This document shows, in pieces, positions 3,367-21,407 of a stretch of DNA of 64,000 nucleotides. Source of the stretch: Candidatus Dojkabacteria bacterium (GTDB lineage: Bacteria; Patescibacteriota; Dojkabacteria; J137); NCBI GenBank assembly GCA_040006935.1, contig JBDTVZ010000003.1:66224-130223 (forward strand). The letters run 5' to 3'. The notes beneath the pieces are model-generated. The model had not been told where the DNA came from. It did no database searches and worked only from the letters and a program-made list of their open reading frames with translations. Positions within the stretch are counted from its first letter, which is position 1. Each line of letters starts with the position of its first letter. Both the position numbers and the translations under genes were made by a program.

Positions 3367-4125
3367 TTACTTAATAAAATATTTACCCAACCATTTTTTC
3401 ATAAACGGCACTTCCATAAACTTTGCCACACCATAGAAAGCAACATTTAGTTCGCCCCAACCAATTAAAGCAGAAATTGATATTTCTAGGATTTTTCCTG
3501 ATGGAACATTGGTAATTGAGTATAGAATAATTCTGCTATTTAGTATTTCCCAAGCCAAACCTGTTAACAAACCAGCTAAAAATGGAGCAAAGAAAGTTAA
3601 AAATTTACCTTGAAATGTGTCAGAAAGAAAATTTTCTACATCAAAGATTGATAAAATAGACCCTGTTAACAGCGTAGCAAAAAATAGAAGAATAGGTATA
3701 AACCAAACATCAACCACTCCTCCTCTCTGGAGTTGATAAATTGAGACAATTATTGTTCCGATTACACTTACAATAAGAAGAAGCCAATAAACTATTTTAT
3801 TAGGATTTGGTAATTTGATAAAGCTCAATTTTCTAAGTTGACCCTCTACCCACAGTGTTGTTTCTAGAATAAAAGGCACAGAAACTATATAAGCAAAGAT
3901 TAAGATGAAAATTAAGTATTCCGCAGGAGCAGAAATAGGATATTCCCAAAGTTTAAACATTAAAACACCAAAAATATCTGAAATTATTCCTCCGACAAGC
4001 CCTAAAATAATACTTAGAAATACATAGTTCTTGTAACTAAACTTCTTAAAGAATAATTTCTGAGAGATAAATGCCCAGCCAAACAAATATACTGCATGAA
4101 GAAAAACGATAAAAGGGTATTCCAT
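3367..4125 (-). CDS. Polytopic membrane protein, unknown function
   Basis: Multiple hydrophobic helices; no motif recognised. Confidence 0.4.
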   Translation of the reverse strand: MEYPFIVFLHAVYLFGWAFISQKLFFKKFSYKNYVFLSIILGLVGGIISDIFGVLMFKLWEYPISAPAEYLIFILIFAYIVSVPFILETTLWVEGQLRKLSFIKLPNPNKIVYWLLLIVSVIGTIIVSIYQLQRGGVVDVWFIPILLFFATLLTGSILSIFDVENFLSDTFQGKFLTFFAPFLAGLLTGLAWEILNSRIILYSITNVPSGKILEISISALIGWGELNVAFYGVAKFMEVPFMKKWLGKYFIK

Positions 4126-7194: not shown

Positions 7195-8253
7195 TTAAAT
7201 TCCAGAATATTTTTCTGTTCTAAAGTCTATTATGCTTAAGTTATTATACTCTCCACTAGAAATTAGTACATTTAAATCTCTAACCTGATCTAATGCTGGC
7301 CTACGTGGATAAAACAAAAGTTGTTTCCCTGTATCAGTATCAAATACAAAAGTATCCCCTGCTCGGTAATCAATATCAATAATATTTAATGGTATTTTCA
7401 AAATAAGTTCTTGTATTTTTAGAACGAACTCTATGCTTGTTTCGCTCACCTCCTCCCCTATTCCCGTTTTATCCAGAAGCCTTACTAAATCTGAGTAGAC
7501 TGATTGTGATACTACGGCTTGTGCTTGTTCAAAATATGCATTTATTTTTCCTTGTGCTTCACTTTTAAACATATCTATATATCTGTCTTTATCTTCTTTT
7601 GTTGCTTTAGACCAAAGATTCCCTGCGTCAATATTAGCTTGGTCTTCTTCAAATCTTTTTTTAACTGAAGGATCGTCTTCTTTAAGTTTTCCGTCTAGAG
7701 CTGATGATTCTTGTCCTGTGAGTTCTATTTTTGGTGCTGGCAAACTTCCCACTTCCATTGCCCTATTATTTAGAAGGCTTATTTTGTCCTTTGAAACTAC
7801 TACTACTACTGGAGTACTTTCTACAATATCTACTTTTATTAATCCTGTAATATCTTTAGAAACATATACGGCTAACACTTCTCCATACTTACTTTTTATG
7901 AGATTTTCTATTTCGCCAGGACGAATTTTTAAAATATTCTTACCCTTATAAACATCTAAAAGATTTAGAATATCTTTACTATCGACTCTAACAATACCTA
8001 CTATTTGAATATCTTGGACTAAAAATATTTTATCATTATTAAATAAGAAGATTCCGAATCCAGCGATAATGATAACTATTGCCATTAGGAAATATTTTTT
8101 AAGCGATCCTATTTTATCTGCAACATCTCCTGCCATATCTTTCAGAAGCAGTTTTCTCCTTTGCTTTTTATAATCAATTTTTGGTTCTTTATTCCTTCCA
8201 AACATACAACTCATATTACACGAGCATGAAGATGAAGTCATGATGAATATCAT
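7195..8253 (-). CDS. ftsQ: Cell division protein FtsQ/DivIB-like (POTRA domain)
   Basis: A short basic cytoplasmic tail and a single TM are followed by a POTRA-like beta region. The position upstream of ftsA-ftsZ matches the usual gene order. The listed ORF extends to 8358, but those extra 35 codons lie in a GC-rich repeat element and are probably not translated. Confidence 0.55.
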   Translation of the reverse strand: MIFIMTSSSCSCNMSCMFGRNKEPKIDYKKQRRKLLLKDMAGDVADKIGSLKKYFLMAIVIIIAGFGIFLFNNDKIFLVQDIQIVGIVRVDSKDILNLLDVYKGKNILKIRPGEIENLIKSKYGEVLAVYVSKDITGLIKVDIVESTPVVVVVSKDKISLLNNRAMEVGSLPAPKIELTGQESSALDGKLKEDDPSVKKRFEEDQANIDAGNLWSKATKEDKDRYIDMFKSEAQGKINAYFEQAQAVVSQSVYSDLVRLLDKTGIGEEVSETSIEFVLKIQELILKIPLNIIDIDYRAGDTFVFDTDTGKQLLFYPRRPALDQVRDLNVLISSGEYNNLSIIDFRTEKYSGI

Positions 8254-8462
8254 ATGTACAGGCCTGCCCTGAGCGTAGCCGAAGGGCTGAGATGTTTGGA
8301 GTATTTGCCCAGCTGTAAAATCCCCCGGCACTCCTGCCTGCCTCTGGCATGGTTGCAAAGGGAGAATTCCTCCTTTTTAAAGGAGGTGGCCAGCTTTAGC
8401 TGGACGGAGGATTTCTACCGCACCGAAAGCATGACAAAGATTTTGTGCGGTCCTTATTGGTA
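8254..8462. repeat. GC-rich repeat element copy A (core ctcctgcctgcctctggcatgg at 8331-8352) with several internal hairpins
   Basis: The segment is strongly GC-rich against the AT-rich genome. It shares the CTTGCCTGCC..TGGCATGG core with copies at 10303-10343 and 15535-15563. It contains the hairpins cctccttt/aaaggagg, ccagct/agctgg and ccgcac../gtgcgg. Confidence 0.6.
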
Positions 8463-8463
8463 A

Positions 8464-8490
8464 TAAAAAAAAAGACCCTCACGGGTCTTC
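8464..8490 (-). terminator. rpsO rho-independent terminator (bidirectional)
   Basis: The hairpin agaccc-tcac-gggtct is followed on the - strand by nine T. Confidence 0.7.
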
Positions 8491-8509
8491 TTTAAAATTC
8501 TTAATATAC

Positions 8510-8800
8510 TTAAATTCCTAATTCTTTAAAAGTTTTAGTAACTTTAGCTTGATCTTCAACAGTTCTTTCTACATATTTAATCAATCTTCTTCTGTCTCCA
8601 ACCAACTTCAATAGACCTCTTCTAGAGTGCTTATCTTTTTTATTAGTCTTTAAATGACTAGATAAATACTTAATTCTCTCTGTTAACAAAGCGATTTGTA
8701 CAAGAGGAGATCCAGTATCTTTATCATGTTCTCCATACTTCTTAATTAACTCAGTTTTTTGAGTTTTATCTTTGTTGAAATTTGACTTCTTACTTGACAT
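8510..8800 (-). CDS. rpsO: 30S ribosomal protein S15
   Basis: S15 signature [38 protein letters not shown]. Confidence 0.88.
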
Positions 8801-8854
8801 ATCTTAATTCGGAATTAAATAATGGTTATATTATAGTACAAAAGACTTTATTAA

Positions 8855-9061
8855 TCAATCAGGTAAGTCATCTTTATCTTCCCCTCTATTTGTTAACCTT
8901 GAAAACAGATTTTGAGCGCTGTCTTTAAAAGTTAAGGCCGATTTCACTGTTGAACGTACTGCTTTGTAATCTGAAAGAGTAAGGTCAGTAAGCTCTGATA
9001 CGTTCTGCACAGGTTTTCTAACATCCTCCAACATTGCTGTGACTTTGTTAATAAGCCTCAT
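8855..9061 (-). CDS. Hypothetical small protein (a hydrophobic stretch is encoded in-frame upstream with no ATG)
   Basis: ORF only. The frame stays open upstream and encodes ILLTLAIAFAIAGISFAI, so a non-ATG start is possible. Confidence 0.3.
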   Translation of the reverse strand: MRLINKVTAMLEDVRKPVQNVSELTDLTLSDYKAVRSTVKSALTFKDSAQNLFSRLTNRGEDKDDLPD

Positions 9062-9269
9062 TATTGCGAAGGAAATCCCAGCTATTGCGAAAGCAATGGC
9101 TAGAGTTAGTAATATTTTTACAAAATCGTCTGTAGGTATAATATTTTTTAGGATAATATGTTAAATTCTCTCTTATTATTATATTTTTTTAATCTTAATT
9201 AAGCAAGGAATTAATTGACAAAATAGCCAATTTAGCTATAATTATTCTACTTACGTTAACTACTCGCAT

Positions 9270-9656
9270 ATGCATAAAAATAAAGATGGAAAAGTAACAG
9301 CGTCACTTACTGAAGTTAAAAATAGAACGGGAGACATTTTTGCACTTGTTGATGAATTCGGAGAGGTATATTTAACTTCGTATAATAAGGTTAGGTATAA
9401 GATTACCAAAACAGATATTGCTGATTATATTGATCTGAAGGATTCTCCTACTAAAACAGAAAAGAAAGAAGTTAAGAAAGTTATTAAACAGGATAAATCG
9501 ATCACACAGGAAGAATTAAGACCAAAAGTTGTGACAGAAGGGTCTGCTGTGAACAATGTTTTAAGCAAAATATCTAAGGTTTTACCTTGGGATAGAGATA
9601 ATAAAATGGAAAGAAAATTTGCAGATAATGCAAGAAGTCCTTTAGTTAGTAATTAA
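9270..9656 (+). CDS. Phd/YefM-family type II antitoxin-like protein with an extended charged C-terminus
   Basis: The N-terminus SLTEVKNRTGDIFALVDEFGEVYLTSYNKVRYKI fits the Phd/YefM fold pattern. It sits immediately upstream of a PIN-domain gene. Confidence 0.5.
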   Translation: MHKNKDGKVTASLTEVKNRTGDIFALVDEFGEVYLTSYNKVRYKITKTDIADYIDLKDSPTKTEKKEVKKVIKQDKSITQEELRPKVVTEGSAVNNVLSKISKVLPWDRDNKMERKFADNARSPLVSN

Positions 9657-9673
9657 ATATTAATGTTAATAAT

Positions 9674-10048
9674 ATGAAAGAAGTTGTATTAGTTGATACT
9701 GGAATAATTGTAGAGTATCTAAGAACAGGCAAAGGCGTACTCCCCTCTGCTTATGAGAGCTATGAGATGGTAATATCTGCATCAACTTACACTGAGCTTT
9801 TAGCAAGTAAAACTTTTGAAGATGAGGCTTTAAAAAAAGAAGTGTTGGAATTTTGTGAGAAGTACTTCTCTATTAAGGATGTTACAGCTGAAATTGCTAT
9901 GAAGGCAGCTGAGGTTTTAAGAAATGCAGAGGTAACTCTTGCAACTGCATATATTGCAGCAACAGCCTTGGAGCATAATATTAAAGTATTAACTGATGAT
10001 CAGAAGAAATTTAGTGAAGTCTCAGGACTTATCTTCATGAATATGTAA
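9674..10048 (+). CDS. vapC: PIN-domain ribonuclease toxin (VapC-like)
   Basis: The N-terminal VLVDTGIIVEYL carries the PIN first acidic residue. A conserved C-terminal LTDDQKF Asp is present. Size is about 124 aa. Confidence 0.6.
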   Translation: MKEVVLVDTGIIVEYLRTGKGVLPSAYESYEMVISASTYTELLASKTFEDEALKKEVLEFCEKYFSIKDVTAEIAMKAAEVLRNAEVTLATAYIAATALEHNIKVLTDDQKKFSEVSGLIFMNM

Positions 10049-10071
10049 CTAGATTATTGAACAAGATTTTA

Positions 10072-10094
10072 AACCGGTGGAAGCCGGTTTTTTA
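10072..10094 (+). terminator. Rho-independent terminator after the toxin-antitoxin operon
   Basis: aaccgg-tggaag-ccggtt followed by tttttt. Confidence 0.6.
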
Positions 10095-10161
10095 TTTCAA
10101 AGTCATCTGCTATAATTGCATGCATTTGATATCGCGAAACTTTTCGAACATGTTATCAGAG

Positions 10162-10235
10162 TCGGAGAGTAGTTCAATTGGCTAGAATACGCGTTTTGGG
10201 AACGCGGGGTTGCAGGTTCGAGTCCTGTCTCTCCG
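10162..10235 (+). tRNA. tRNA-Pro (anticodon UGG)
   Basis: A manual cloverleaf fold works. The acceptor CGGAGAG/CUCUCCG pairs. The D-arm is GUUC..GAAU. The anticodon stem is CGCGU/ACGCG with loop UUUGGGA (U33, G37). The T-arm is GCAGG-UUCGAGU-CCUGU. The discriminator is A and no CCA is encoded. It is flanked by an extended inverted repeat, atcagagtcggagag...ctctccgactctgat. Confidence 0.8.
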
Positions 10236-10420
10236 ACTCTGATAATAGTAGTTCAACCCGCCTGTCCGCGCAGTCGGGCAGGTTGGTTAGAATACGCGTT
10301 TTGCTTGCCTGCCTCCTTGGCTGCCTTGGGCATGCTGGCATGGGGAACGCGGGGTTGTCGAGTCCTGTCTCTCCGATTTATTAACAATTCAGTCCTGTTT
10401 GCCTGCCAAAGGCAGGTTTC
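10236..10420 (+). pseudogene. Decayed tRNA-Pro paralog carrying GC-rich repeat element copy B, followed by a ttgcctgcc-aaa-ggcagg hairpin
   Basis: Direct alignment to the intact tRNA-Pro shows the D-loop segment agtagttcaa..ttggttagaatacgcgtttt. A 26-nt GC insert (cccgcctgtccgcgcagtcgggcagg) sits in the D-loop. A 40-nt insert (gcttgcctgcctccttggctgccttgggcatgctggcatg, 10303-10342) lies between anticodon-loop positions 34 and 35. There is a 5-nt deletion in the T-stem. The 3' end tcgagtcctgtctctccga is kept but no complementary 5' acceptor exists. Confidence 0.6.
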
Positions 10421-10434
10421 TTCGATTTATTATT

Positions 10435-11046
10435 ATGAAAGATTTAGATACACAGGTTGAAAATCCTATAAGTATTATTGATAGCACGATAGAAGAAGCA
10501 TTGCCAGCCTACTTTGAAGGATTGAATATCCCCGAAGGTGCAATGAGTAAACTTGCAGCAACGCTCTTAGGTTATGCGAATAGCATTGTATATAAGCGTA
10601 GTGAAGATTATTCTGAAAGCCTTGCGTGTGGGGACTTTGCCAATGTCGCTACTTACCTTCTCGATTCTTTCTCCACGCATTACGGTTTAGACCAAGCCCT
10701 CATAGCTAAGATTATGATTTTCTATGAAGACGAGAGTTCGCATGCGAGAGTAAGTATGTATAACCCAGTTACGGGTAATTTTCTTTACTTTGAACCTCAA
10801 TCTCGTAGAGGAACAACCCTTTTACTAAAGAGTGAATCACTTAAAAAAGACCCTTATGACGCAATTCAAGATTTAGCAACCATCGCTAGTTCCCATATCG
10901 ATAAGATGCGTCAAGTTAAAGAGGTAAAATTCTATACAGATAAAGCTCGTTATGCGACTGAAAGAATAAATAAGAAAGGTAATAGATTGAATACATTCCC
11001 ATCCACAATACAACTTGATTCGAAACTCGCTGAGATTTTTGGATAA
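10435..11046 (+). CDS. Hypothetical protein
   Basis: ORF 10399..11046. The likely start is MKDLDTQ at 10435, because the upstream part overlaps the GC repeat. No motif recognised. Confidence 0.35.
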   Translation: MKDLDTQVENPISIIDSTIEEALPAYFEGLNIPEGAMSKLAATLLGYANSIVYKRSEDYSESLACGDFANVATYLLDSFSTHYGLDQALIAKIMIFYEDESSHARVSMYNPVTGNFLYFEPQSRRGTTLLLKSESLKKDPYDAIQDLATIASSHIDKMRQVKEVKFYTDKARYATERINKKGNRLNTFPSTIQLDSKLAEIFG

Positions 11047-11214
11047 GGTTTGATTAGGCATAAATGTACTGCCGCTTTTCGACCGGCTCCGGATTAAGTA
11101 TATAGTTTAAAGTTTTAAGCTCTAAACAATAGGTTCACATTCTATCCTGTTAGTTTGATTTAAGTTTACACACTTCTCTATTTGCTATAATCTAAGATGG
11201 ATTAAGCAAATCAA

Positions 11215-13008
11215 ATGAAATCTTCACGTTTAAGTTTAAAACAAAATTTCTCCACTCTAGTTTGGATAACAAAACTTGCCTTCTCCTTTAATAGAATCAA
11301 TTACGTTTTGTTAGGTATTTCTACGATTATTCAAGACAATATTCCTATCGCTACTTCTTTTTTAGCTGCCTTAATTATTGAGAAACTTGCAAATGGAGTG
11401 CGTACTTTTAATGACGAAATAATTACTCTGTTAGTTCTTATCTTCCTTACTGGTTTCATATCTAATTATATAAATAGTTTTAATCGTTATTTAACAGTGC
11501 GGTTTAATCAGGCATGGGAATTGAGAGCTTGGAATGTATTCTTGAACAAGACCTCGAGCTTAGACTTTCAACATCTAGAAAGCCCTGAGTATAGTCTTCT
11601 CATGCACAAGGTAAAAGAAACTGTAAATTGGAGAGGAAGCATTGTTGCACAAATTGTTCCAGAAGCAATTTCAGGATTTATTGGAATAATTCTGATTGCT
11701 GGAATTTTTATATCAATCAATCCAATATTTATAATCCTTATATTAATTCCGGAAATATTTCGATTTGTAATTAACAAGAAGTATGGGTTTGATTTATTTT
11801 CAATTTGGGATTCCCATGGCGAAACAAAACACCATGCATGGCATGCACAGGATTCCCTAGAAAAAACTGATGTTTTAAGAGAAGCTAAAATATATTCTTT
11901 CACGGTTAGCATACTTTCAAGATACAAAAGCGAAGTAGGTAAATTTATGAGCGAATCTTTAAAAAAGCTTAATCAGAGATATGCTCTCATAGGAATAGTT
12001 ACATTTTTTGATGTTATGATTTTAGTTTCTATTCAGATCTGGCTGATTCTACAAGTATTTGCTCAAATCATAAATATTGGCTCATATACATTCTATTTGG
12101 GAAGTATTACTACTGCATCAGATGCTTTTAATAGATTACAAATATCACTCTCTTCTCTACTTGAGCAACTTCCTTTTGTAGACGATTTTAGAAAATATTT
12201 AGAAATGGAAGATTTAGTAATTAAACCTGAAAATCCAGTAAAGATTTTACAAACAGCACCTAGAATTGAATTTCAAAATGTTTCGTTTAAATATCCAAAT
12301 TCTGAAGAATATGTCCTTAAAGATGTAAGCTTTACGATTGAACCGGGAGAAAAAATTGCATTAGTTGGAGAAAATGGTGCAGGTAAGACCACTCTTATTA
12401 AATTACTCGCGAGATTTTATGACGTCTCAGATGGAGAAATATTAGTTAATGATATTAATATTAGAGAAATTGACTTAGCTAGTTATTACAAACTTTGGGG
12501 AGTTCTATTTCAGTCTTTTGCAAAGTTATGGTTTTCTATACGGGAAAATATTGGAATTGGCAATACCGAAGATATTAATAACATGGAATTAATAAAAGAT
12601 GCTGCGAGAAAAGCAGATGCAGAAGAATTTATTAATAAACTTCCTATAAAATACGAGACTTTACTAAGCAAAGATTTTAAGAATGGAACCGACTTATCTG
12701 GAGGTCAATGGCAAAAATTAGGAATTGCTAGAGCAATGTTTGCAAATCCTAAATTAATTGTTCTAGATGAACCTACATCCGCCTTAGATGCGTTAGCCGA
12801 AGCAGAAGTATTCGAAAGTATTAATGAACTATCAAAGAACTCCACTGTTCTGGTAATTTCCCATAGATTTGCGACAGTGAGAAATGCTAATAGGATTTTA
12901 GTTTTAAAAGATGGGAAATTATTAGAACAAGGAACTCACAAAGAACTTTTGGAAAATGATAACCTCTATGCACAAATGTTTAACGAACAGGCTAAGGGTT
13001 ATTTATAA
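11215..13008 (+). CDS. ABC transporter, fused permease/ATP-binding protein (exporter type)
   Basis: Six N-terminal TM helices. Walker A GENGAGKTTL, ABC signature LSGGQWQKLGIARA, and Walker B LIVLDEPTSALD. Confidence 0.85.
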   Translation: MKSSRLSLKQNFSTLVWITKLAFSFNRINYVLLGISTIIQDNIPIATSFLAALIIEKLANGVRTFNDEIITLLVLIFLTGFISNYINSFNRYLTVRFNQAWELRAWNVFLNKTSSLDFQHLESPEYSLLMHKVKETVNWRGSIVAQIVPEAISGFIGIILIAGIFISINPIFIILILIPEIFRFVINKKYGFDLFSIWDSHGETKHHAWHAQDSLEKTDVLREAKIYSFTVSILSRYKSEVGKFMSESLKKLNQRYALIGIVTFFDVMILVSIQIWLILQVFAQIINIGSYTFYLGSITTASDAFNRLQISLSSLLEQLPFVDDFRKYLEMEDLVIKPENPVKILQTAPRIEFQNVSFKYPNSEEYVLKDVSFTIEPGEKIALVGENGAGKTTLIKLLARFYDVSDGEILVNDINIREIDLASYYKLWGVLFQSFAKLWFSIRENIGIGNTEDINNMELIKDAARKADAEEFINKLPIKYETLLSKDFKNGTDLSGGQWQKLGIARAMFANPKLIVLDEPTSALDALAEAEVFESINELSKNSTVLVISHRFATVRNANRILVLKDGKLLEQGTHKELLENDNLYAQMFNEQAKGYL

Positions 13009-13023
13009 ATTAGTTAAAATAAT

Positions 13024-13443
13024 ATGAAGGAGATTTATAAAGTTAAATTAGTATCACTAGTTGTACTCGAAAAGAACAATCAGATTCTGTTAATTAGGCG
13101 TTTGAATACTGGATGGGAAGACGGAAAGTATACTGTCCCGTCTGGACATTTAGAGGAAGGTGAAAAACCTTTAGAAGCAGCAGTGAGAGAGACAAGGGAA
13201 GAAGTTGGGGTTGAATTAAACACAGATGACTTGAAACTTGTGCATGTAGATTTTTTCGATAATTACATTCATCTATATTTTAAGTGTTCTAAATGGTCGG
13301 GAGAACCACAAATCATGGAACCCAATAAATGCGATGATATTTTATGGGCAAGTTATAATGATTTACCAGAAAACCTTGCTGGCCATGGACATGAAACATT
13401 GAGAGCCATAGGTGAGAATATATTATTTTCTGAATATGACTAA
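13024..13443 (+). CDS. NUDIX hydrolase
   Basis: Nudix box GHLEEGEKPLEAAVRETREEVGVEL. Confidence 0.8.
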   Translation: MKEIYKVKLVSLVVLEKNNQILLIRRLNTGWEDGKYTVPSGHLEEGEKPLEAAVRETREEVGVELNTDDLKLVHVDFFDNYIHLYFKCSKWSGEPQIMEPNKCDDILWASYNDLPENLAGHGHETLRAIGENILFSEYD

Positions 13444-13451
13444 ATTAATTT

Positions 13452-14084
13452 ATGAAGCTCACTCTCTTCTCACAAAATATTACTGAAAAACATATTAATA
13501 AGTTAGAGACCTATTTTCACAAACCACTGGCTAAAGTTAAATTTCTATATATAAATACTCCCGGTAATTACAAACCATATAAATCTGAATGGATGATAAA
13601 AAGTGAAAGAAAGTGGCAAAATATTTTTCCTAAATTTCAAGAATTCGATATCGAAAGGGCTTATAGAGTTGATAAAAATTTCGATTTCAAAACTTATTTC
13701 GAATCTTTCGATTTTATATTTATAAGTGGTGGGAATGTTTTTGTACTTTCATACTGGATGGAAAAAACAGGGTGTAGAGATATATTAAAAAAGTTAGTCG
13801 AAGAAGGAAAGGTTGTATACGGAGGAGAATCTTCTGGGGCTGTTTATGTATACAAAGACCTAGAAATTTATAGCGCAGCAGATGAGCCTAAAGATGCTCC
13901 AGCAGTAGTAAATGATGGTTTGGGTTTTATAGATTTTGCACCAATTCCCCATTGGGAGAATGAGAAATTTCAAAGTATTTTGGAAGATATAAAAAAACAA
14001 TTTGAAAGTAAAAATGTGACAACTTATACAATCGAGGACAATCAAGCTTTATTTATTGCTACAGATAAAGTTCAAATTATTTAA
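13452..14084 (+). CDS. Peptidase S51 (dipeptidase E-like) family protein
   Basis: FISGGNVFVL and the GESSGA nucleophile-elbow motif are typical of S51/PepE. Confidence 0.5.
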   Translation: MKLTLFSQNITEKHINKLETYFHKPLAKVKFLYINTPGNYKPYKSEWMIKSERKWQNIFPKFQEFDIERAYRVDKNFDFKTYFESFDFIFISGGNVFVLSYWMEKTGCRDILKKLVEEGKVVYGGESSGAVYVYKDLEIYSAADEPKDAPAVVNDGLGFIDFAPIPHWENEKFQSILEDIKKQFESKNVTTYTIEDNQALFIATDKVQII

Positions 14085-14099
14085 AATTATTTTTTTAAC

Positions 14100-14366
14100 A
14101 TGGAAGCAAAAACCGAAACACAAACTGCATCGCAACCAGAAAAACAAATTGAATATAAACCTGCTCTTTTGACAGAGTGGCAGGGTAAACTTGAAGGCAA
14201 GAATGTCACTGCGAATATTAACGGTAATATTGTAAAAGGTTCTGTAAAACAAATTATGATCTCGCAGACCTTCCCTAAAATTCTTATGGCTTTAATTCGA
14301 TCCCTAGACGGGAAGAGTTATATTGCATACGACTTAGACAAAGTTACAGTTGATGAGGTAATTTAA
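14100..14366 (+). CDS. Hypothetical small protein
   Basis: ORF only. Confidence 0.3.
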   Translation: MEAKTETQTASQPEKQIEYKPALLTEWQGKLEGKNVTANINGNIVKGSVKQIMISQTFPKILMALIRSLDGKSYIAYDLDKVTVDEVI

Positions 14367-15370
14367 TCTATATACGCGAAAGTTATTGTCGGCGTTTGGC
14401 CTAAGTAACCAATTTTATATTCCTCAATCTTATAATTTGGAAAGTTCCTACTTAGATACTTACTCACTATTTCGGGATTAGAGCTTATAAGACCTATCCC
14501 TCCATTGATCTCTAGGATTCTCCTATATTCATTTATTATGCCGTTGTATAAGGAGTTAATATCATCAATTCTTATTTGTTTACCCCAAGGTAAATTAGAA
14601 ACTGCGATATCGAATTGTCTAGTAAATTTAGTATGTGAAGCATCCTCCAAGTACAATTTAAAATCCTGATATCCAACTTTTGCTAGATTTTTCTTAGTTA
14701 TCTCCACTCTACTACTAAGAATATCCCCTCCAGAAACTTTCAGACCCTGATTGAACCCCTCACATAAAAAAGTTCCACTTCCACATAAATTATCTACTAG
14801 AGTTTTTGCATCAACTTTGCTTTTTAGAAAAGTAATCATAGCTGCCGCTATTGTTGGCCTTATACTTCCAAATTGTGACATATGTTCATACTCTCTTTGA
14901 TATAAACTTTTTGGGAATATTTTTAATAATACAGTTGCATTCTCTCCTTCCAGTGCAACTTTAACATCAAAGTTTGAATGATCTAAAGGAGAATATGAAA
15001 AGCCTAATATCTTAGTAAGCTTATCCGAAAACTGAGATTTGATTGAATCTTGTGAATAATCTTTATTTTTATAAACACTTGCTGTAATTGAAAAGAACGC
15101 TTTGATTTTTCTAATCCCTTTAATCCACTCAATGGCTTCAGAAAAATTCTCTTTGGTTAAAAGATTAATTATCGTTGTAATATTTGCACTTAATATTAAG
15201 ATTGACAAATCATCGACTGTTTTCAGATGGGCAAGTTGTGTAGTATCACCTAAAAAATCAAACTCCACATGTTTTTGCCTGCAACTTATGTTTGAAACTC
15301 CTTCAAGTTGCCTAATTTCTTCTGCTGAGATCTCTTCTATTCCTTTTACAACACTGGCAATAATTTTCAT
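14363..15370 (-). CDS. THUMP-domain RNA (guanine-N2) methyltransferase-like protein
   Basis: SAM motif LCGSGTFLCEGF. The catalytic motif is SNLPWG (a (D/N)PP(Y/F/W)-type). An N-terminal THUMP-like region is present. Confidence 0.6.
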   Translation of the reverse strand: MKIIASVVKGIEEISAEEIRQLEGVSNISCRQKHVEFDFLGDTTQLAHLKTVDDLSILILSANITTIINLLTKENFSEAIEWIKGIRKIKAFFSITASVYKNKDYSQDSIKSQFSDKLTKILGFSYSPLDHSNFDVKVALEGENATVLLKIFPKSLYQREYEHMSQFGSIRPTIAAAMITFLKSKVDAKTLVDNLCGSGTFLCEGFNQGLKVSGGDILSSRVEITKKNLAKVGYQDFKLYLEDASHTKFTRQFDIAVSNLPWGKQIRIDDINSLYNGIINEYRRILEINGGIGLISSNPEIVSKYLSRNFPNYKIEEYKIGYLGQTPTITFAYID

Positions 15371-15459
15371 GGTTAGATTATACTACCACAACGCAATACC
15401 TAAATTAAGAAGGATGAAAGTCTAGTGAAAAGATTCTACTGTTACACCCAGTCTTGCGG

Positions 15460-15487
15460 GAATGTTACGTAATTTTACGTAACATTC
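15460..15487. promoter_or_regulatory. Perfect 28-bp palindrome GAATGTTACGTAA-TT-TTACGTAACATTC, a putative operator
   Basis: Seen directly: 13-bp perfect arms, a 2-nt spacer and two TTACGTAA cores. It lies in the upstream region of the THUMP methyltransferase, next to the GC-rich element. Confidence 0.45.
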
Positions 15488-15500
15488 ACCTGTATTTGTG

Positions 15501-15641
15501 GTCATTGCGAGGAGGACTTATTGTGCCCTGCCCTGCTTGCCTGCCTTTGGCATGCTGGCATGGAGCGGAGTCGAAGGGTGGCAATCCCATTAGAAACCAA
15601 GTCCTTGGATTGCTTCTCAGTCTTAGACGGATCGCAATGAC
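15501..15641. repeat. GC-rich repeat element copy C, flanked by a 10-bp inverted repeat GTCATTGCGA/TCGCAATGAC; core gcttgcctgcctttggcatgctggcatgg at 15535-15563
   Basis: The GC-rich block shares the core with copies at 8331 and 10303. It is followed by agcggagtcgaagggtgg, which is also seen at 18806. A separate 26-nt perfect palindrome catgcctgactgc|gcagtcaggcatg lies at 15659-15684. Confidence 0.6.
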
Positions 15642-15722
15642 AACAAGAAATAGGCCGCCATGCCTGACTGCGCAGTCAGGCATGTAACACAGCTGGCGAT
15701 AATGTTGACTTCACAAGGGTAA

Positions 15723-16382
15723 TTAGCCTTTTTTATTAGCTTTCCATTCCTCTATCTCTGCATGATTCCCTGAAAGAAGAACTTCTGGAACTGTCCACTC
15801 TTCGCCTTCATCATTTTTGAAAGTACTTGGACGTGTGTATTGAGGATATTCGGGATTACCTTCTGTTGTTTCGTCTTGTAAAGATTCTTCACTTCCTAAA
15901 ACCCCTGGCATTAATCTTATTATAGAATCTAAAATCACCATCGAAGGTAGCTCTCCGCCAGACAAAACATAGTTTCCTATACTAATCTCTTCGTCAATTA
16001 AGTTTTCTACAATCCTATGATCAAAACCTTCGTAATGCCCACAAAGAATTACAACTCTATCAATTTCTTTAGAATATGTTTGTGCGAAAGTCTGATTCCA
16101 TTGCTTTCCTTTTGCACTCGTTAAGATTACTTTTGTTTTTGGATCTTTGTTTGGATAAACTCCAAGTGCTTTTAATGCGTTGTAAACAACTTCTAACTTT
16201 ATTAACATTCCTGGATTTCCACCAAAAGGTTTATCGTCAACGGTGTGGTGTTTATCTGTAGACCAATCTCGAAGATTATGAATATTTATTTTTACTAAAT
16301 TTTTTTCTTTTGCTCTTTTTACAATACTTTCGTTTAAGTACGAGTAGGAGTTTGGGAAAAGTGTAATTATGTCGAATTGCAA
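15723..16382 (-). CDS. trmD: tRNA (guanine37-N1)-methyltransferase TrmD
   Basis: MQFDIITLFP.., ILCGHYEGFDHR and SIGNYVLSGGELPSMVILDSIIRLMPGVLG are classic TrmD motifs. Confidence 0.92.
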   Translation of the reverse strand: MQFDIITLFPNSYSYLNESIVKRAKEKNLVKINIHNLRDWSTDKHHTVDDKPFGGNPGMLIKLEVVYNALKALGVYPNKDPKTKVILTSAKGKQWNQTFAQTYSKEIDRVVILCGHYEGFDHRIVENLIDEEISIGNYVLSGGELPSMVILDSIIRLMPGVLGSEESLQDETTEGNPEYPQYTRPSTFKNDEGEEWTVPEVLLSGNHAEIEEWKANKKG

Positions 16383-16521
16383 TGTAGTGAATAGTTAAGA
16401 GTTAAATAGTTAATAGATTTTATCATATCAGCTGAATCTGATCTTCTAACTGATCATTTATAAATTCTAATCGCTTTAGATCTTTAGATTTCGAAATTCC
16501 ATAAATCTAATTGCTAAATAT

Positions 16522-18732
16522 CTAAGAATCTAATTTCTCCAGCTTAGCGTACTCCATCATTAATTCTTTTTTCCCGTAAACTGGTCCGAAGTTGATGATC
16601 ACAATATCTGAATCTATATACTCTACTGTTCCTTTTCCAAAGTAATCATGCCTGACTTTATCACCAATACTTAAATCTACAGATGGTTTGTAAGGTTTAT
16701 CAATAGAAGAATCTGATGCTGCACTCCAACTTGTTTCGTAACCAATCGCTTCATCGTTTTGTAAATCTAAAATTGAATTATCAATGTCTTCAATAAATCT
16801 TGAAATTAGATTTCGTTGAGTCTTTCCAAAATATTTTCTGGACTTTGTGTACGTCATGAATAACTTTTTCTTTGCTCTTGTGATTGCAACATAAGCAAGA
16901 CGCCTTTCCTCTTCCATTTCGTGTTCGTCCATCATTGAGTTTGAATGTGGGAATAAATTTTCTTCCATTCCAACAACGAATACATATTCAAATTCCAATC
17001 CTTTTGCAGAGTGAATTGTCATTAACGTAACTGATTCTGACGAAACTTCTTTTTTACTAAAACTTTCTAATAAAGATATTTCTCCTAAGAAATTTTCCAA
17101 TGCTTCCTCTGGTTCTTGATCTTCAAATTTTGAAGCGAGTGAAATTAATTCTTTTAAGTTTTCAATTCTTGTTTCTCCTTCCGCAGTTCCGTCATCTAAC
17201 ATTTCTATATATTTTGTTTTTTCGAGAACAAGATTAATAAAGTCTATGATCTTCTTTTCTTTAGATTGTTTGATCAAATCCACAATCATTGATGCAAATG
17301 CTTTTAACTTCGGATTTATTCCGTCTTCCGTTTCCCGCTGACCGTTAACCTCGAGCAGGTATTGCAATGCACCCATGCCTTTCCCCTTGGCTAAAACTTC
17401 AAGATCCGTTGCGCTTTTATCTCCAATTCCTCTTCTCGGAGTATTTACCACTCTTTTAAAAGACGAATTATCCTTTGGGTTATAAATTAATCGAAGATAC
17501 GAAAGAATATCTTTAACCTCTTTTCTATCATAAAAACGAACTCCACCAACAATTTTATATGGAATATTATTTTGTAAAAATGCTTCTTCTAAAGTTCTTG
17601 ACTGTGCGTTTGTTCTATATAAAACTGCGAAATCATTAAATCCCTCTGGTGAATCTTTTTTTAATTTTTCAATTACTTCAGTTACATATAGCGCTTCATT
17701 CTCTTCGTTAAGTGCTTTGTACAAAACTATATTGTCTCCATTATCATTTTCTGTCCAAAGTTTTTTATCTTTTCTTCTTTTATTTTTTGAAATTACTTGA
17801 TGTGATGCTTCTAAAATCTTTTTTGTGGATCGGTAATTTTGTTCTAGTTTAATTACCTTTGCACTCGGGTAATCTTTTTCGAAGCTTAAAATGTTTTTAA
17901 TTGTTGCTCCTCTGAATGCGTAAATACTTTGATCGTCATCTCCAACACAACAAATATTTTTGTAATGCTCTGCCAACAATTTAATAATTGTATACTGAGC
18001 ATGATTTGTATCCTGGTATTCATCAACTAAAATATATTTAAATGCTTTTTGTAAATTAGTTAAAACTTCTTTGTTGTTTTTTAAAAGCTGAACTGTAAGC
18101 ATTAATAAATCATCGAAATCTACTGCGTTACTTTCTTTTAAAATTTTTTGATACTCTGGATAAACTCTGGCAACAGCTTGTTGAAAATATCCTTGTGCGG
18201 ATCCTGAATATTCTTGATGTGTAATTAATTCGTTTTTTGCAGAAGAAATATAGGAATGTATTGCGTATGCATTAAATTCTTTTGTGGAAATTTTTGCTGC
18301 TTCCATTGCATCTTTTGTAATTGCAATTTGATCACTGGAATCGTAAATGATGAAATTTCTGTTAATCCCAACTAATTCACCATATTTTTTTAAAAGCTTT
18401 AAACAAATGGAATGAAAAGTTCCCATCCAAGGTAAGTTTTCAGTTTGTTTATTCTCTGATGACTGATTACTGATAACTGACAACTTTTTTATTCTCTCTT
18501 TCATTTCCTCAGCAGCTTTATTTGTGAAAGTCATTGCAAGGATATTCATTGGGCCAGCTAAACCAGAATCAAGAATGTAAGCAAGACGATAGGTTAAAAC
18601 TCTAGTTTTACCAGATCCCGCACCTGCTAAAACCAAGACTGGACCTTCTGTAGCCAGAACAGCTTCTTTTTGTGGTGGATTTAAGATGTCTAAATTAATC
18701 ATGGGAAATTCAAAAGATTCTTTGAATGTTAT
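16522..18732 (-). CDS. uvrD: ATP-dependent DNA helicase UvrD/PcrA
   Basis: Walker A AGAGSGKTRVLTYR and helicase motifs II-VI (DEYQDTN, VGDDDQSIY, QNYRST, VLYRTN). A C-terminal Tudor-like tail is present. The ORF extends to 18831, but the conserved N-terminus begins near MITFKE/MINLDILNPPQKEAV. Confidence 0.9.
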   Translation of the reverse strand: MTFKESFEFPMINLDILNPPQKEAVLATEGPVLVLAGAGSGKTRVLTYRLAYILDSGLAGPMNILAMTFTNKAAEEMKERIKKLSVISNQSSENKQTENLPWMGTFHSICLKLLKKYGELVGINRNFIIYDSSDQIAITKDAMEAAKISTKEFNAYAIHSYISSAKNELITHQEYSGSAQGYFQQAVARVYPEYQKILKESNAVDFDDLLMLTVQLLKNNKEVLTNLQKAFKYILVDEYQDTNHAQYTIIKLLAEHYKNICCVGDDDQSIYAFRGATIKNILSFEKDYPSAKVIKLEQNYRSTKKILEASHQVISKNKRRKDKKLWTENDNGDNIVLYKALNEENEALYVTEVIEKLKKDSPEGFNDFAVLYRTNAQSRTLEEAFLQNNIPYKIVGGVRFYDRKEVKDILSYLRLIYNPKDNSSFKRVVNTPRRGIGDKSATDLEVLAKGKGMGALQYLLEVNGQRETEDGINPKLKAFASMIVDLIKQSKEKKIIDFINLVLEKTKYIEMLDDGTAEGETRIENLKELISLASKFEDQEPEEALENFLGEISLLESFSKKEVSSESVTLMTIHSAKGLEFEYVFVVGMEENLFPHSNSMMDEHEMEEERRLAYVAITRAKKKLFMTYTKSRKYFGKTQRNLISRFIEDIDNSILDLQNDEAIGYETSWSAASDSSIDKPYKPSVDLSIGDKVRHDYFGKGTVEYIDSDIVIINFGPVYGKKELMMEYAKLEKLDS

Positions 18733-18794
18733 CATAATTGTGGTTGAAAAGTTATAAAGTTCAAGGTGTGAAACTAAGTAATTCATTGCTATAG

Positions 18795-18825
18795 TAGGTG
18801 GCATGGTGAACGGAGTCGAACCATG
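18795..18825. repeat. GC-rich repeat fragment copy D (ggtggcatggtgaacggagtcgaaccatg), a hairpin with T-loop-like GGTTCGACTCC on the - strand
   Basis: It aligns to 15543-15575 (gctggcatggagcggagtcgaagggtgg). Its CATGGTGA...GTCGAACCATG ends match 31067-31132. Confidence 0.45.
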
Positions 18826-18851
18826 ACTCAAGAGCTGATATAATTCAGATT

Positions 18852-20609
18852 ATGAAGAAAATTATTACAATATTTCTACTAACTGCCTTACTTGTATCTC
18901 CCCTACTCGCTAAGGTTAGTAATGCAGCCACGCTTAAGAGAACTTTTACAAGAGAATATGACGTTGTTGATGACCATATAGTTGTAAAGGAAAGTAAGAG
19001 TTTCCAATTTGATAGTAATGGGCTACTAGTCCCTGCAGGTTCGGATGAACAATTTACAATTTTTAATCCCATCAATATAGATCCCGATAGAGATAGTAAA
19101 CTTCAAAAGACAAAAGATTCAATTATACTTCTGGATGGTGATGGGAATAATTTAACGTATACAACAGAAGCTACCGATGGAGATAATTTATTAATAAAGT
19201 TTAAATTTCCCCGTGATATTAGCTTTTACACCCCCTACTCTGTTTCCTTAGAATATAATTCCTATGGTTTATTAGTAAAGAGTGGAAATATTAGAGATGT
19301 GTATGTTCCGGCATTTGCACAAGATTATGTTTTCAGTGATTCTCAGTATGAAGAAGATGTTGAAACAAAAGTTGTGATTCCAAAAAGTTTAGGTGAAATA
19401 AATTTTGTGTTGCCGAATTCTACAAGGACTGAAGATTCAGATAATTTTATAATTAACTTTAATAAGGAAGATTTAGTCGGACAAACTGGATGGATTCAGA
19501 TTGGGACAAAACAATATTATAACTTTTCAATAAAACAATCTTACGTTCAAACGTCTCCATTTGGATTTATTCAAAATAGTTATAAGATATTAATTCCTCG
19601 GGATATTAATGCAGGTGTGATTAAACAACGAGTCTACTTTTCAAAAATTTCTCCTGAACCTTATTCCGTTACTAATGATGAGGAAGGAAATTTATTTGCT
19701 GAGTTTAGAGTCCCATCGAACGAATCTGGAGATATACTAATTGAAGGGTATGCAGAACTTAACCAAGATAATTCGGTTGATTTTAAAAATTCTGGAAAAC
19801 TTTCAGATATTGATCCACAGATAGTTAAAGGTAACACTTCGTCTGCACAATATTGGGAATCCGATAGTCCAGAAATTAAAGCTGCAGTTGCAGAAATTTT
19901 TACAGGAAAAGATATAAACAGCATGAGTATTTATGATATTTCACAGACTATTTACAATTTTGTAATTAATAAAATTGACTACAGCAATATAAAAAGATTT
20001 GGAATAAATGCAAGGCAAGGAGCACTTGCAACTCTCAAAGGTGGGGCAGCGGTATGTATGGAGTATTCTGATCTATATATTGCACTTATGAGAGCAGTTG
20101 GAGTTCCAACTAGAGCTGCATTCGGATTTGGTTATTCAGCTTTGGATAATGCCGACGCAGGAGATAATACTATTAATCACCAATGGGCAGAAGTTTATAT
20201 TCCATCAATTAAAAGTTGGATTGGAGTTGATACAACATGGGGAGAAAATGGGAATATTCTAATAGGTGGAGACTTAAATCACTTCTATACTCATGTTGCA
20301 AATAAATCTCCTACAACCCCAAGTACAACTGAAGTAAGGATATTAGGTAATACAAATGAAATTCCCGAAAGAGTTTCTAATGTAGATGCGATAGCATCTA
20401 TTCCAACAACAGAATTAATTACTCCGGAAGAAATGAAAGTTAAATATATAAAACCAAATACTTTCGATATAAATAATTTACCCGATAGTTCCTACAATAC
20501 TTTCAAAGTTTTGCTCGCACTTTTGATTACAATCGCAATCATTGCGCCATTTATAATAAGAAGAAAGTTAAAAAGAAAGATCGTAATTAAATCAATGAAT
20601 ATAACGTGA
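18852..20609 (+). CDS. Secreted/anchored transglutaminase-like cysteine protease domain protein
   Basis: Signal peptide MKKIITIFLLTALLVSPLLA. The transglutaminase core has Cys (GGAAVCMEYSDLYIALMRAVGVPTR), His (NHQWAEVYI) and Asp (GVDTTWG). A C-terminal TM plus KRK tail is present. Confidence 0.6.
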   Translation: MKKIITIFLLTALLVSPLLAKVSNAATLKRTFTREYDVVDDHIVVKESKSFQFDSNGLLVPAGSDEQFTIFNPINIDPDRDSKLQKTKDSIILLDGDGNNLTYTTEATDGDNLLIKFKFPRDISFYTPYSVSLEYNSYGLLVKSGNIRDVYVPAFAQDYVFSDSQYEEDVETKVVIPKSLGEINFVLPNSTRTEDSDNFIINFNKEDLVGQTGWIQIGTKQYYNFSIKQSYVQTSPFGFIQNSYKILIPRDINAGVIKQRVYFSKISPEPYSVTNDEEGNLFAEFRVPSNESGDILIEGYAELNQDNSVDFKNSGKLSDIDPQIVKGNTSSAQYWESDSPEIKAAVAEIFTGKDINSMSIYDISQTIYNFVINKIDYSNIKRFGINARQGALATLKGGAAVCMEYSDLYIALMRAVGVPTRAAFGFGYSALDNADAGDNTINHQWAEVYIPSIKSWIGVDTTWGENGNILIGGDLNHFYTHVANKSPTTPSTTEVRILGNTNEIPERVSNVDAIASIPTTELITPEEMKVKYIKPNTFDINNLPDSSYNTFKVLLALLITIAIIAPFIIRRKLKRKIVIKSMNIT

Positions 20610-21322
20610 TGTTGTTATTCGAAGAATCAGAATGTATACTAAAATATATGAAATCATATTTACACACAGACATTCAAACTGATTCTAATTCTGTTTTTAC
20701 CAAGCTATATTCTTGGAAATCTCCAGAAAGATATTGGGTACCAAGGGACCGTGCTTGGTTTACTGTATATACCATCTTCTTCTTATTGATAATTCTAGCT
20801 GGAGTACTTTTAAAAGAATTCATTTTTATACTTGCAGTTTTAGCATTCGCATTCTTGTGGTTTGTAAATGCAATAATCCCCCCTGAAATCACTGAACATA
20901 CAATTACAACTATTGGTGTTAGAACTTATGGGAAGTTATATCGATGGAAGAGCATAAAACATTTCTGGTTTTCCGAAAAAGATGACGTAGTTTTTTTACA
21001 TTTAGATATTAAAGAAGACGACACAAAGACAATTACTAAGAGAATAACCTTAATTTTAAATGAGCCCGGACAAGATAACGTAATATTTGATTTCTTAATT
21101 CGATTTATTGATTTTGGCGAGAAAGAAGAGATCTCTTTCAGTTATTTAACAAGACTTACAGAAGGGAAATATTATGAAATTGAAAAATACCTTCCAGATG
21201 AAAAGATTAAAATAATGCACGACAAAAAAGATGACGTTAAAAAGAATACTAATGAAAATTCTTCAAACAAAGGCACCTCTCTTTTAGACAAACTCGCAAG
21301 CATCAAAAACTCCAGCAAGTGA
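20606..21322 (+). CDS. Membrane protein, unknown function
   Basis: Two TM helices after an N-terminal segment. The start overlaps the previous stop (gtgATGA). Confidence 0.35.
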   Translation: MMLLFEESECILKYMKSYLHTDIQTDSNSVFTKLYSWKSPERYWVPRDRAWFTVYTIFFLLIILAGVLLKEFIFILAVLAFAFLWFVNAIIPPEITEHTITTIGVRTYGKLYRWKSIKHFWFSEKDDVVFLHLDIKEDDTKTITKRITLILNEPGQDNVIFDFLIRFIDFGEKEEISFSYLTRLTEGKYYEIEKYLPDEKIKIMHDKKDDVKKNTNENSSNKGTSLLDKLASIKNSSK

Positions 21323-21407
21323 TATAATCAACGTAAAATCTTGGTGATTCCGGCTGGAGCCAGGAGAATTTAAGTTCAATTCTTTATCTTAGCCTTATTC
21401 TTAAAAA

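Follow-up and report, generated by a model that had tools for sequence, protein, structure and literature searches.

The tRNA-Pro locus and its intact gene

The DNA analysed here is a 64-kb window of a metagenome-assembled genome (MAG) of Candidatus Dojkabacteria, a member of the candidate phyla radiation (CPR, or Patescibacteria) with a GC content of about 33%, and all feature and repeat counts refer to this window. Its tRNA-Pro(UGG) gene lies in a neighborhood that includes FtsZ, FtsA, FtsQ, rpsO, a PIN-domain gene and genes for an ABC transporter, a NUDIX protein and a peptidase S51. The ABC transporter protein matches, at 100% identity, one encoded on a 213.5-kb contig of a Candidatus Dojkabacteria MAG. 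The gene is followed by a partial, interrupted duplicate of itself (copy 2), by two further repeats of its 3′ end and by an open reading frame (ORF) of 203 codons, orf203. Together, these sequences probably represent a non-functional scar of duplication and insertion, colonized by GC-rich palindromes that resemble repetitive extragenic palindromic (REP) elements. Transfer RNA genes were called with ARAGORN (standard settings, intron options and a relaxed threshold) and with Rfam model RF00005, which identify three genes: tRNA-Pro(UGG) at 10163–10237, tRNA-Arg(GCG) at 21408–21481 and tRNA-Ser(CGA) at 21650–21736. At gathering and E-value thresholds Rfam finds these three tRNAs alone in the window, and neither the GC-rich regions nor the downstream elements of other CPR genomes described below have a match. 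Copy blocks were defined with a repeat finder and BLAST within the window, and protein domains were sought in its 49 ORFs and in the genes beside tRNA-Pro in L025 and L031, where L001, L002 and so on denote the genome loci used for comparison. All features lie on the + strand unless otherwise indicated.

The intact tRNA-Pro(UGG), whose CCA end is not encoded, scores 61.8 bits against RF00005 over 10163–10236 and is identical to the tRNA-Pro sequences of L001 and L025. Comparison with relatives points to a putative −10 element of its promoter, ctgctataatt, at 10107–10117; the same sequence in L003 and ggtataat in L001 and L025 are found directly 5′ of tRNA-Pro. The element lies 44 nt 5′ of the gene in the window versus 10–15 nt in the relatives, and a consensus promoter scan did not call it.

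The acceptor stem of this gene and 10 nt on either side form an inverted repeat, I1 (10153–10169/10229–10245), that is complementary at 17/17 positions. The left arm contributes a leader part, TTATCAGAGT (10153–10162), and the right arm ends in ACTCTGATAA (10236–10245), the exact reverse complement of the 10 nt before tRNA-Pro. In the predicted RNA fold, leader and trailer lengthen the acceptor stem to 17+ bp. Complementarity of this type is present in none of the 12 related loci compared, and the chance probability of 10 extra complementary bases at a fixed position is about 1e-6. An exact inverted copy that adjoins an inverted repeat, makes it longer and perfect and is missing from relatives is what a quasipalindrome template switch would leave behind; ACTCTGATAA can be read as such a fold-back junction, the mechanism being suggested by this signature.

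A partial and interrupted duplicate of tRNA-Pro

Copy 2 (10247–10376) covers tRNA positions 6–73 in four collinear blocks. Block 1 (10247–10256) corresponds to 10168–10177 at 10/10 positions, block 2 (10283–10303) to 10178–10198 at 20/21, block 3 (10343–10357) to 10198–10212 at 15/15, and block 4 (10358–10376) to 10218–10236 at 19/19, giving an identity of 64/65 over the retained bases. Single blocks reach BLAST E-values of 6e-5 and 1e-3 in the 64-kb window, and these values together with the collinearity exclude chance. Acceptor positions 1–5 are missing, and CAGGT (5 nt of the T stem/loop) is deleted. A preliminary description of this DNA, made from the sequence alone, had reported an intact tRNA-Pro(UGG) followed by a copy with near-identical segments that lacks the 5′ acceptor strand and 5 nt of the T stem, all of which is borne out.

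Two GC-rich inserts separate the blocks, at the places where that description had put them. Insert 1 (CCCGCCTGTCCGCGCAGTCGGGCAGG, 10257–10282), whose sequence agrees with the one given there, is a 26-nt hairpin in the D-loop, predicted to fold with an 8-bp stem, and is homologous both to 15657–15686 and to an insert at the same tRNA position in L031. Insert 2 (CTTGCCTGCC...GGCATGCTGGCATG, 10304–10342) lies within the anticodon, contains an internal 12-nt duplication and measures 39/40 nt, earlier given as 40 nt; its boundary is ambiguous by 1–2 nt because of a shared G/TG. It is identical to 15536–15563 at 26/28 positions and to 15534–15546 over a 13-nt exact match, forming direct-repeat family D1.

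No tRNA model and no intron model matches copy 2. ARAGORN, run at standard thresholds and with intron options as had been proposed, returns the intact gene only and no second tRNA; after in-silico excision of the inserts, a tRNA-Pro(tgg) is called at a relaxed threshold. Rfam gives no match on copy 2 at the gathering threshold or at E≤5. Neither a cloverleaf nor an acceptor helix can form, since copy 2 has lost the 5′ acceptor strand and the 5′ strand of the T stem; a canonical tRNA gene would have a 7-bp acceptor stem with D, anticodon and T arms and score above the model threshold. The predicted RNA fold consists of three separate hairpins (fold z-score −2.0), in which the inserts lengthen the D and anticodon helices. 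With lengths of 26 and 40 nt, versus about 200 nt or more in a group I intron, and with incomplete flanking "exons", the inserts are not group I introns, as had been argued earlier, and an Rfam search of 8000–22000 at E≤5 returned no Intron_gpI or other match beyond the tRNAs. At the insert junctions the predicted fold shows continuous helix extensions rather than the 3-nt bulges flanking a 4-bp helix of a bulge-helix-bulge motif, and no EndA-like domain occurs among the 49 window ORFs. Copy 2 is a decayed, non-functional paralogous copy of tRNA-Pro, very probably not a spliced tRNA, and is probably transcribed only as the discarded 3′ trailer of pre-tRNA-Pro. A simple tandem duplication was rejected as its origin: the 3′ flanks of the two copies differ and the junction between them is inverted.

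Nested 3′-end repeats and the extra DNA

Copy 2 belongs to a set of three nested repeats of the 3′ end of tRNA-Pro, with the others at 10391–10432 and 11144–11161. The spacer that follows it (10377–10390) joins TTTATTA to ACAATTC, and comparison with relatives identifies TTTATTA as an ancestral-type tRNA-Pro 3′ flank: the corresponding sequence is TTTATAA in L001, TTTAATA in L025, TTTAAAG in L040 and TTTAAGC in L045. A TTTA-type flank is found after copy 2, after fragment 3 and after the remnant described below, and not after the intact gene, which is followed by ACTCTGATAA.

Fragment 3 (10391–10432), seen as direct repeat D4 (10367–10383/10416–10432, 88%), repeats the last 16–24 nt of tRNA-Pro (AGTCCTGT ... 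TTCTTCGA) and ends in the flank TTTATTA. A hairpin of 18 nt, TTGCCTGCCAAAGGCAGG (10399–10416), interrupts fragment 3; its predicted fold reaches −6.1 kcal/mol (z −2.3), and a U-rich tract follows. The hairpin at 10402–10416 and the U-tract may act as a terminator; a consensus terminator scan did not call them.

The ORFan gene orf203 (10435–11046) lies inside the extra DNA. Its GC content is 0.377 and its GC at third codon positions (GC3) 0.304, about +2 standard deviations. Queried against 5.8 billion proteins and against 1.84 billion cluster representatives, it returned the self-match only, no Pfam, PHROG or NCBIfam entry matches, and tblastn finds no match in any relative. An AlphaFold model is unusable, with a predicted local distance difference test score (pLDDT) of 35. 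To judge from these searches, orf203 is a lineage-specific gene without homologue.

Further downstream, a promoter-like box of the ABC transporter gene (TATTTGCTATAATCTA, 11179–11194) marks the ancestral right boundary of the locus. The identical 16-mer occurs at L001 2760, 19 nt after the L001 tRNA-Pro, and in the ungapped register set by this box the window sequence TCCTGTTAGTTTGATTTA (11144–11161) is aligned with TCCTGTCTCTCCGATTTA of L001. In a 19-nt test window (11146–11164), 12/19 positions match, a level that only 6.7e-4 of the window 19-mers attain. On this alignment 11144–11161 can be read as the decayed original 3′ end of tRNA-Pro with its flank. If it is the old 3′ end, it follows that about 0.9 kb would have been inserted between the tRNA-Pro body and its ancestral 3′ end.

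Comparison with related genomes

The loci L001, L002 and L003 (ABC transporter 60–70% identical) share the order FtsQ-S15-x-x-PIN-tRNA-Pro-ABC with one tRNA-Pro each, and the gap from the PIN-domain gene to the ABC transporter gene is 170–294 nt in these relatives versus 1167 nt in the window. Likewise, L025, L037, L040, L045, L052, L073 and L074 have orf128-PIN-tRNA-Pro with a single, uninterrupted copy. A 19-mer common to both window copies, scanned across 185,579 species-representative genomes, identified 70 loci, none with two matches. Since all syntenic relatives carry a single tRNA-Pro, copy 2 is lineage-specific; the comparison of orthologous loci suggested in the preliminary description thus yields no second copy, and copy 2 does not substitute for a second tRNA-Pro located elsewhere. 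The closest relative by TrmD, L087 (84%), stops just before the tRNA-Pro locus. Across Dojkabacteria, synteny breaks down in the region 3′ of tRNA-Pro.

An interrupted tRNA-Pro fragment is also present in the Dojkabacteria contig L031, which shares only 56% TrmD identity with the window genome. There, a 5′ partial tRNA-Pro copy (positions 1–32) lies upstream of the intact gene and contains a 28-nt hairpin, CCTGCCTGACTGCATCACGCAGGCAAGG, at the exact D-loop position of insert 1; its homology with both insert 1 and 15657–15686 is clear. The L031 and window fragments each bear the anticodon-stem variant of their own genome. This recurrence reflects either old fragments homogenized by gene conversion or a recurrent position-specific process.

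Broader searches returned no further example. Of two scans of JGI metagenomes, one gave zero matches and the other, for any 15–45-nt insert at the D-loop site, a single chance match (tRNA-Val and tRNA-Asp of an unrelated bacterium). Phage tRNA genes or chance coding matches were all that IMG/VR yielded, whether it was scanned for the 3′ end of tRNA-Pro, for the insert pattern of the D-loop or for the core of the hairpin, and a plasmid search gave no match.

In L084 (GCA_964620955.1), a tRNA-Pro-like sequence at 10946–11020 on the − strand lacks the 5′ acceptor strand, spans positions ~12–73 with one acceptor mismatch, abuts a TATAAT box and is not called by ARAGORN; a small ORF just downstream encodes what we take, by eye, to be a GIY-YIG-like protein. 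In L065, 57 nt of GC-rich sequence (cagagcgaagcgaaaggagg...tcccgctaagcggga) have been inserted together with a 17-nt repeat of the 3′ end of tRNA-Pro, and the flank of the related L041 is uninterrupted. The L065 tRNA-Pro (3465–3539) with the next 75 nt, and L041 from 35–53 onward, constitute a filled-site/empty-site pair for a tiny insertion at the tRNA 3′ end.

A family of GC-rich hairpins

The two inserts are members of one family of imperfect, GC-rich palindromes that share the outer stem CCTGCC...GGCAGG/GGCATG. The family pattern has 8 matches at 6 loci, all intergenic, versus 0.04 expected from shuffled sequence, and GCCTGCC occurs 6 times versus 1.24 expected, always on the + strand. Copies related to the inserts are found at five sites (15527–15563, 15657–15686, 8331–8351, 10399–10416 and 21762–21790), which supports the earlier suggestion that the inserts are a repeated GC element. 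The best-preserved copies of both types lie in an intergenic palindrome cluster at 15527–15686, where 15527–15563 resembles insert 2 and 15657–15686 is a perfect, 11-bp-stem version of insert 1. The latter is predicted to fold at −11.9 kcal/mol (z −5.3), and insert 1 is a degraded version of it.

The family comprises short, multi-copy, extragenic, GC-rich imperfect palindromes clustered at 8255–8440 and 15440–15700, as do REP elements and bacterial interspersed mosaic elements (BIMEs). The listed copies are without the GTAG/CGTC tag, and no Y1 transposase domain of the REP-associated tyrosine transposase (RAYT) type is present in the window. Nor are they miniature inverted-repeat transposable elements, since a duplicated target is missing and the elements are single hairpins of 18–40 nt. 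No target-site duplication and no common target motif was found for inserts 1 and 2, and integrase and transposase domains are absent from the 49 window ORFs and from the genes beside tRNA-Pro in L025 and L031. By analogy, the family would best be described as REP/BIME-like.

Two intergenic mosaics hold family members. The 260-nt intergenic cluster at 15440–15700 has fold z-scores of −5.6 and −4.9 on the two strands and contains a 12-bp AT-rich hairpin (15460–15487), a 10-bp closing stem (15501–15510/15632–15641) and two GC hairpins; it may represent a mosaic of the BIME type or else a structured RNA. The member CTCCTGCCTGCCTCTGGCATGG (8331–8351) sits inside the variable GC-rich FtsQ-rpsO intergenic mosaic at 8255–8440. 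This spacer is minimal in L003, and in the window, L001 (858–886) and L002 (5256–5299) it is a GC-rich mosaic composed of CCTCTTTTAAGAGGGGTGG, a variable hairpin and GGGGTGT.... The FtsQ-rpsO spacer is another Dojkabacteria hotspot of GC-rich modular insertions. Additionally, a short GC-rich module, GAGCG(T/G)AG(C/T)CGAAGG(G), recurs at window positions 8271–8286 and 15564–15579 and at L001 13905–13919, and the similar GAGCGAAGCGAAAGG is present in the L065 insert.

A parallel case at tRNA-Ser

The tRNA-Ser(CGA) gene of the window is flanked by partial copies on both sides. Upstream, 21555–21620 repeats positions −2 to 35 of the intact gene, with exact matches of 23 nt and 13 nt to 21649–21671 and 21672–21684, and is interrupted by a 30-nt double-hairpin D-loop insert (21578–21607) whose predicted fold reaches −11.3 kcal/mol (z −4.8). 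The first bases of this insert, TCAGCC, repeat the neighboring GGCTGA in inverted form, which amounts to a smaller template-switch signature. Downstream, a partial 3′ copy (21754–21800; GAATCCTG ... GTCCTCTCCGT) is split by a hairpin, CTTGCCTGCC-loop-GGCAGG, and the split falls at the same T-stem/acceptor junction as in fragment 3 of tRNA-Pro. The tRNA-Ser fragments, fragment 3, the remnant at 11144–11161 and the 17-bp inverted repeat all extend what the preliminary description had covered.

Origin of the locus

We consider it probable that the DNA 3′ of tRNA-Pro is a non-functional, lineage-specific duplication and insertion scar that was colonized by REP-like GC palindromes, and three steps can be reconstructed. 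In the first, DNA with the ORFan gene would have entered the tRNA-Pro 3′ end and displaced the old 3′ end to 11144–11161. In the second, local replication errors would have duplicated parts of the gene. The clearest such event would be a fold-back of the nascent strand at the acceptor-stem inverted repeat, in which 10 nt of its own leader served as the template for ACTCTGATAA; with synthesis resumed on the original template at position 6, the tRNA would have been copied a second time, which would yield copy 2 and after it the ancestral flank TTTATTA. This fold-back route would reproduce the order leader, tRNA, inverted leader, tRNA(6–73), ancestral flank. In the third, the redundant copies would have been colonized by REP/BIME-like CCTGCC...GGCAGG palindromes, in or beside hairpin loops. 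The decayed, non-functional paralog of the preliminary description is retained in this account, to which are added the nested repeats, the 0.9-kb lineage-specific insertion and the inverted-repeat junction pointing to template switching, all of which that description had missed.

The position of the locus offers some context for the second step. The dnaN (− strand) and dnaA (+ strand) genes are divergent at 57839–61806 and the cumulative GC skew has its minimum near 61 kb, so that the replication origin probably lies at ~59–60.4 kb. From these positions, the three + strand tRNA genes are probably head-on to replication, a circumstantial background for a template switch.

Several observations weigh against this account. 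The hairpin at the same site in L031 is not predicted by random colonization of junk DNA and suggests a site preference or a coupling of duplication and insertion. Moreover, 5′ tRNA-Ser fragments lie upstream of tRNA-Ser both in the window genome and in L001, each matching its own gene, and their presence in two genomes hints at a systematic process or at retention. An exact donor for the inserts was not found, the best match being 93%. Finally, a free local alignment of the tRNA to 11047–11180 is not significant, and the remnant is significant in the fixed register only.

Of the alternatives, the one that survives best, itself unlikely, regards the repeats as attachment-site (att) remnants: successive integrative elements would have entered the 3′ part of tRNA-Pro, each leaving an attR repeat, and would then have been deleted down to their GC-rich ends and orf203. 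Integration-derived tRNA gene fragments are well documented (PMC9897764), and the layout at the locus is classical, with an intact tRNA, then DNA missing from relatives and a displaced, decayed 3′ end by the ancestral flank. The repeats at 10358–10383, 10391–10432 and 11144–11161 bound DNA that is missing from the empty site of relatives, decay grows with distance from the gene, synteny among Dojkabacteria breaks 3′ of tRNA-Pro, and L065 and L041 display a filled and an empty site in another CPR pair. Against this, the bounded DNA carries only orf203, which has no domain; no recombinase domain is found in the window, and no integrase or recombinase domain in its 49 ORFs or beside tRNA-Pro in L025 and L031. 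The gaps of 10 nt between the intact gene and copy 2 and of 14 nt between copy 2 and fragment 3 would require two whole elements to be lost without losing a repeat. The model explains neither the exact inverted leader copy nor why hairpins occupy the D and anticodon loops instead of the ends of fragments, and no attP-like match was found in IMG/VR.

Somewhat more doubtful still is the proposal that the GC hairpins are a new small mobile element of CPR bacteria that recognizes tRNA-shaped DNA hairpins, with a mechanistic coupling between insertion and partial target duplication. Such an undescribed class in Dojkabacteria, perhaps also in other CPR bacteria, would insert in the D-loop between AGTAGTTCAA and TTGG, in the anticodon and at the T-stem/acceptor junction after CCTG; the working tRNA would be kept, and fragment-plus-hairpin scars would pile up on both sides of it. 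Homologous hairpins that share one D-loop site, between AGTAGTTCAA and TTGG, in two distant genomes, each within a fragment of that genome's own tRNA-Pro variant, fit this proposal, as does the T-stem/acceptor junction after CCTG being struck in both tRNA-Pro and tRNA-Ser fragments. The family is also over-represented and strand-biased, and 2/3 of the window tRNAs are affected. The D-loop case is limited to two genomes, however, with a chance match only in the metagenome scan; no target-site duplication, shared target motif or candidate enzyme was found; family members also occur in intergenic palindrome clusters without tRNA similarity; and the other examined Dojkabacteria loci are without family members. 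The targeted insertion raised in the preliminary description is only suggested, by the homologous L031 hairpin at the same D-loop site, and no enzyme or target motif accompanies it.

An artefact of assembly or amplification, either an inverted chimera from multiple displacement amplification (MDA) or two population alleles joined in tandem, is very improbable. The source is a MAG, and at the junction that follows the intact tRNA the neighboring sequence is repeated in inverted form, as is typical of MDA chimeras. Yet the locus lies within a 213.5-kb contig of normal gene content, and three differing partial copies with different hairpins, together with the tRNA-Ser case 11 kb away, would not arise from one chimeric join. 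Independent assemblies contain the D-loop hairpin in the L031 tRNA-Pro fragment and the tRNA-Ser 5′ fragment in L001, and a 17-bp inverted repeat would be too short to mislead assemblers with k ≥21.

Least probable of all is a functional RNA, be it a regulatory trailer, the tRNA-derived scaffold considered earlier or a tRNA-Pro whose short intervening sequences would be excised or tolerated. The 64/65 identity could reflect constraint, the inserts lengthen the D and anticodon helices coaxially in the manner of expansion segments and unusual tRNA and rRNA insertions occur in Patescibacteria (PMC13011429, PMC11270868). But such identity equally follows from recent origin or gene conversion with the neighbor, neither the 5′ acceptor strand nor the 5′ strand of the T stem is retained, no model of a tRNA or an intron fits, the inserts are far below group I size, the copy is missing from all relatives, and the fold of three hairpins rather than a cloverleaf has a z-score of only −2.0.

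Further elements in the window and in other CPR genomes

In CPR genomes of the Paceibacteria type, a conserved element of ~150 nt with a long apical hairpin follows tRNA-Pro and its terminator. It is located at L072:105–255(−), L016:2734–2885(+), L063:7307–7455(−), L058:4698–4847(−), L064:4686–4815(+) and L070:2302–2448(+), and its 3′ end, GTCTCTGnnTCTCCrAC, resembles that of tRNA-Pro. RNAalifold predicts 37 pairs, 4 with compensatory changes, and Rfam has no match at E≤1; on this model the element is a candidate for an unannotated small RNA. Of the "fragments" of 11–18 nt found 3′ of tRNA-Pro in Paceibacteria-type loci, at least one set is the 3′ end of this conserved 150-nt element rather than a duplication. 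A second recurrent GC-rich motif, GGCGACGG...(G)CCTAGT...CCGAAGGG, occurs within ~250 nt 3′ of tRNA-Pro in the CPR genomes L005, L009, L014, L024, L033, L035, L043 and L049 and corresponds to no Rfam family.

Another small hairpin-loop insertion is seen in the terminator hairpin of the PIN-domain gene, ACCGG-loop-CCGGTTTTT. Its loop holds an extra 19 nt (cctgctcacctctggagag) in L001 only (2583–2611), by comparison with window 10071–10090 and with L025 ~70 nt 5′ of tRNA-Pro. At window 16844–16939 (− strand), RF03531, a Clostridioides difficile small RNA inside a helicase gene, gives a sub-threshold score of 44.6 versus a gathering threshold of 65.2 bits; the match lies inside a UvrD-like helicase ORF and is probably a coding-sequence similarity.

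Relation to known systems and implications

Template switching at quasipalindromes is an established replication-error mechanism in bacteria, and the birth of hairpins by template switching is reportedly discussed in bioRxiv work. As in such events, the imperfect inverted repeat of the acceptor stem would have been made longer and perfect by an exact inverted copy, after which copying would have resumed. The window event, known from its sequence signature only, differs in being coupled to a 68-nt duplication and to later hairpin insertions. Mobile GC clusters of yeast mitochondria, short GC-rich palindromes in a very AT-rich genome that are intergenic and occasionally within genes, offer a likeness to the window family that is phenomenological only, as they belong to a different domain of life and are unrelated in sequence.

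Partial tRNA gene fragments beside intact tRNA genes are known as traces of foreign-DNA insertion, bounded by the left and right attachment sites attL and attR (van der Gulik et al. 2023, PMC9897764). The window locus resembles them in its intact tRNA followed by DNA missing from relatives, in direct repeats of the 3′ part and in an old 3′ end by the ancestral flank; like them, its fragments are non-functional and could mislead annotation. It differs from att-type elements in having no integrase, a cargo of one ORFan in ~0.9 kb and repeats only 10–14 nt apart. Moreover, one repeat spans positions 6–73, and the fragments are interrupted by GC hairpins.

The hairpin family shares with REP/BIME sequences and other small GC-rich stem-loop repeats of bacteria (PMC3733652, PMC3184786) its size of 18–40 nt, GC-rich imperfect palindromes in multiple intergenic copies, mosaic clusters and the lack of target-site duplication. 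In contrast to these, no GTAG/CGTC tag and no RAYT-like gene is seen, the copies form GC islands in a 33% GC genome, and several lie inside tRNA-fragment loops, in one case at a position common to two genomes. Group I introns in tRNA genes of Patescibacteria (PMC13011429) come from the same radiation and likewise interrupt the anticodon loop; they differ from the window inserts in being hundreds of nt long, with a ribozyme core, in complete genes and spliced.

The locus is ordinary in kind, consisting of tRNA gene fragments and small palindromic repeats, and is a previously undescribed instance in a CPR genome. For annotation, the region is most probably a pseudogene scar rather than an intron-bearing or split tRNA, and similar fragments flank other CPR tRNAs. 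The locus shows that local scars of duplication and insertion at tRNA genes are tolerated even where CPR genomes are very small and streamlined, and that such genomes carry a proliferating family of GC-rich palindromes that form GC islands in DNA of 33% GC. If a wider census confirms the recurrence at the D-loop, seen in two distant Dojkabacteria genomes, it would point to an undescribed structure-specific insertion process.

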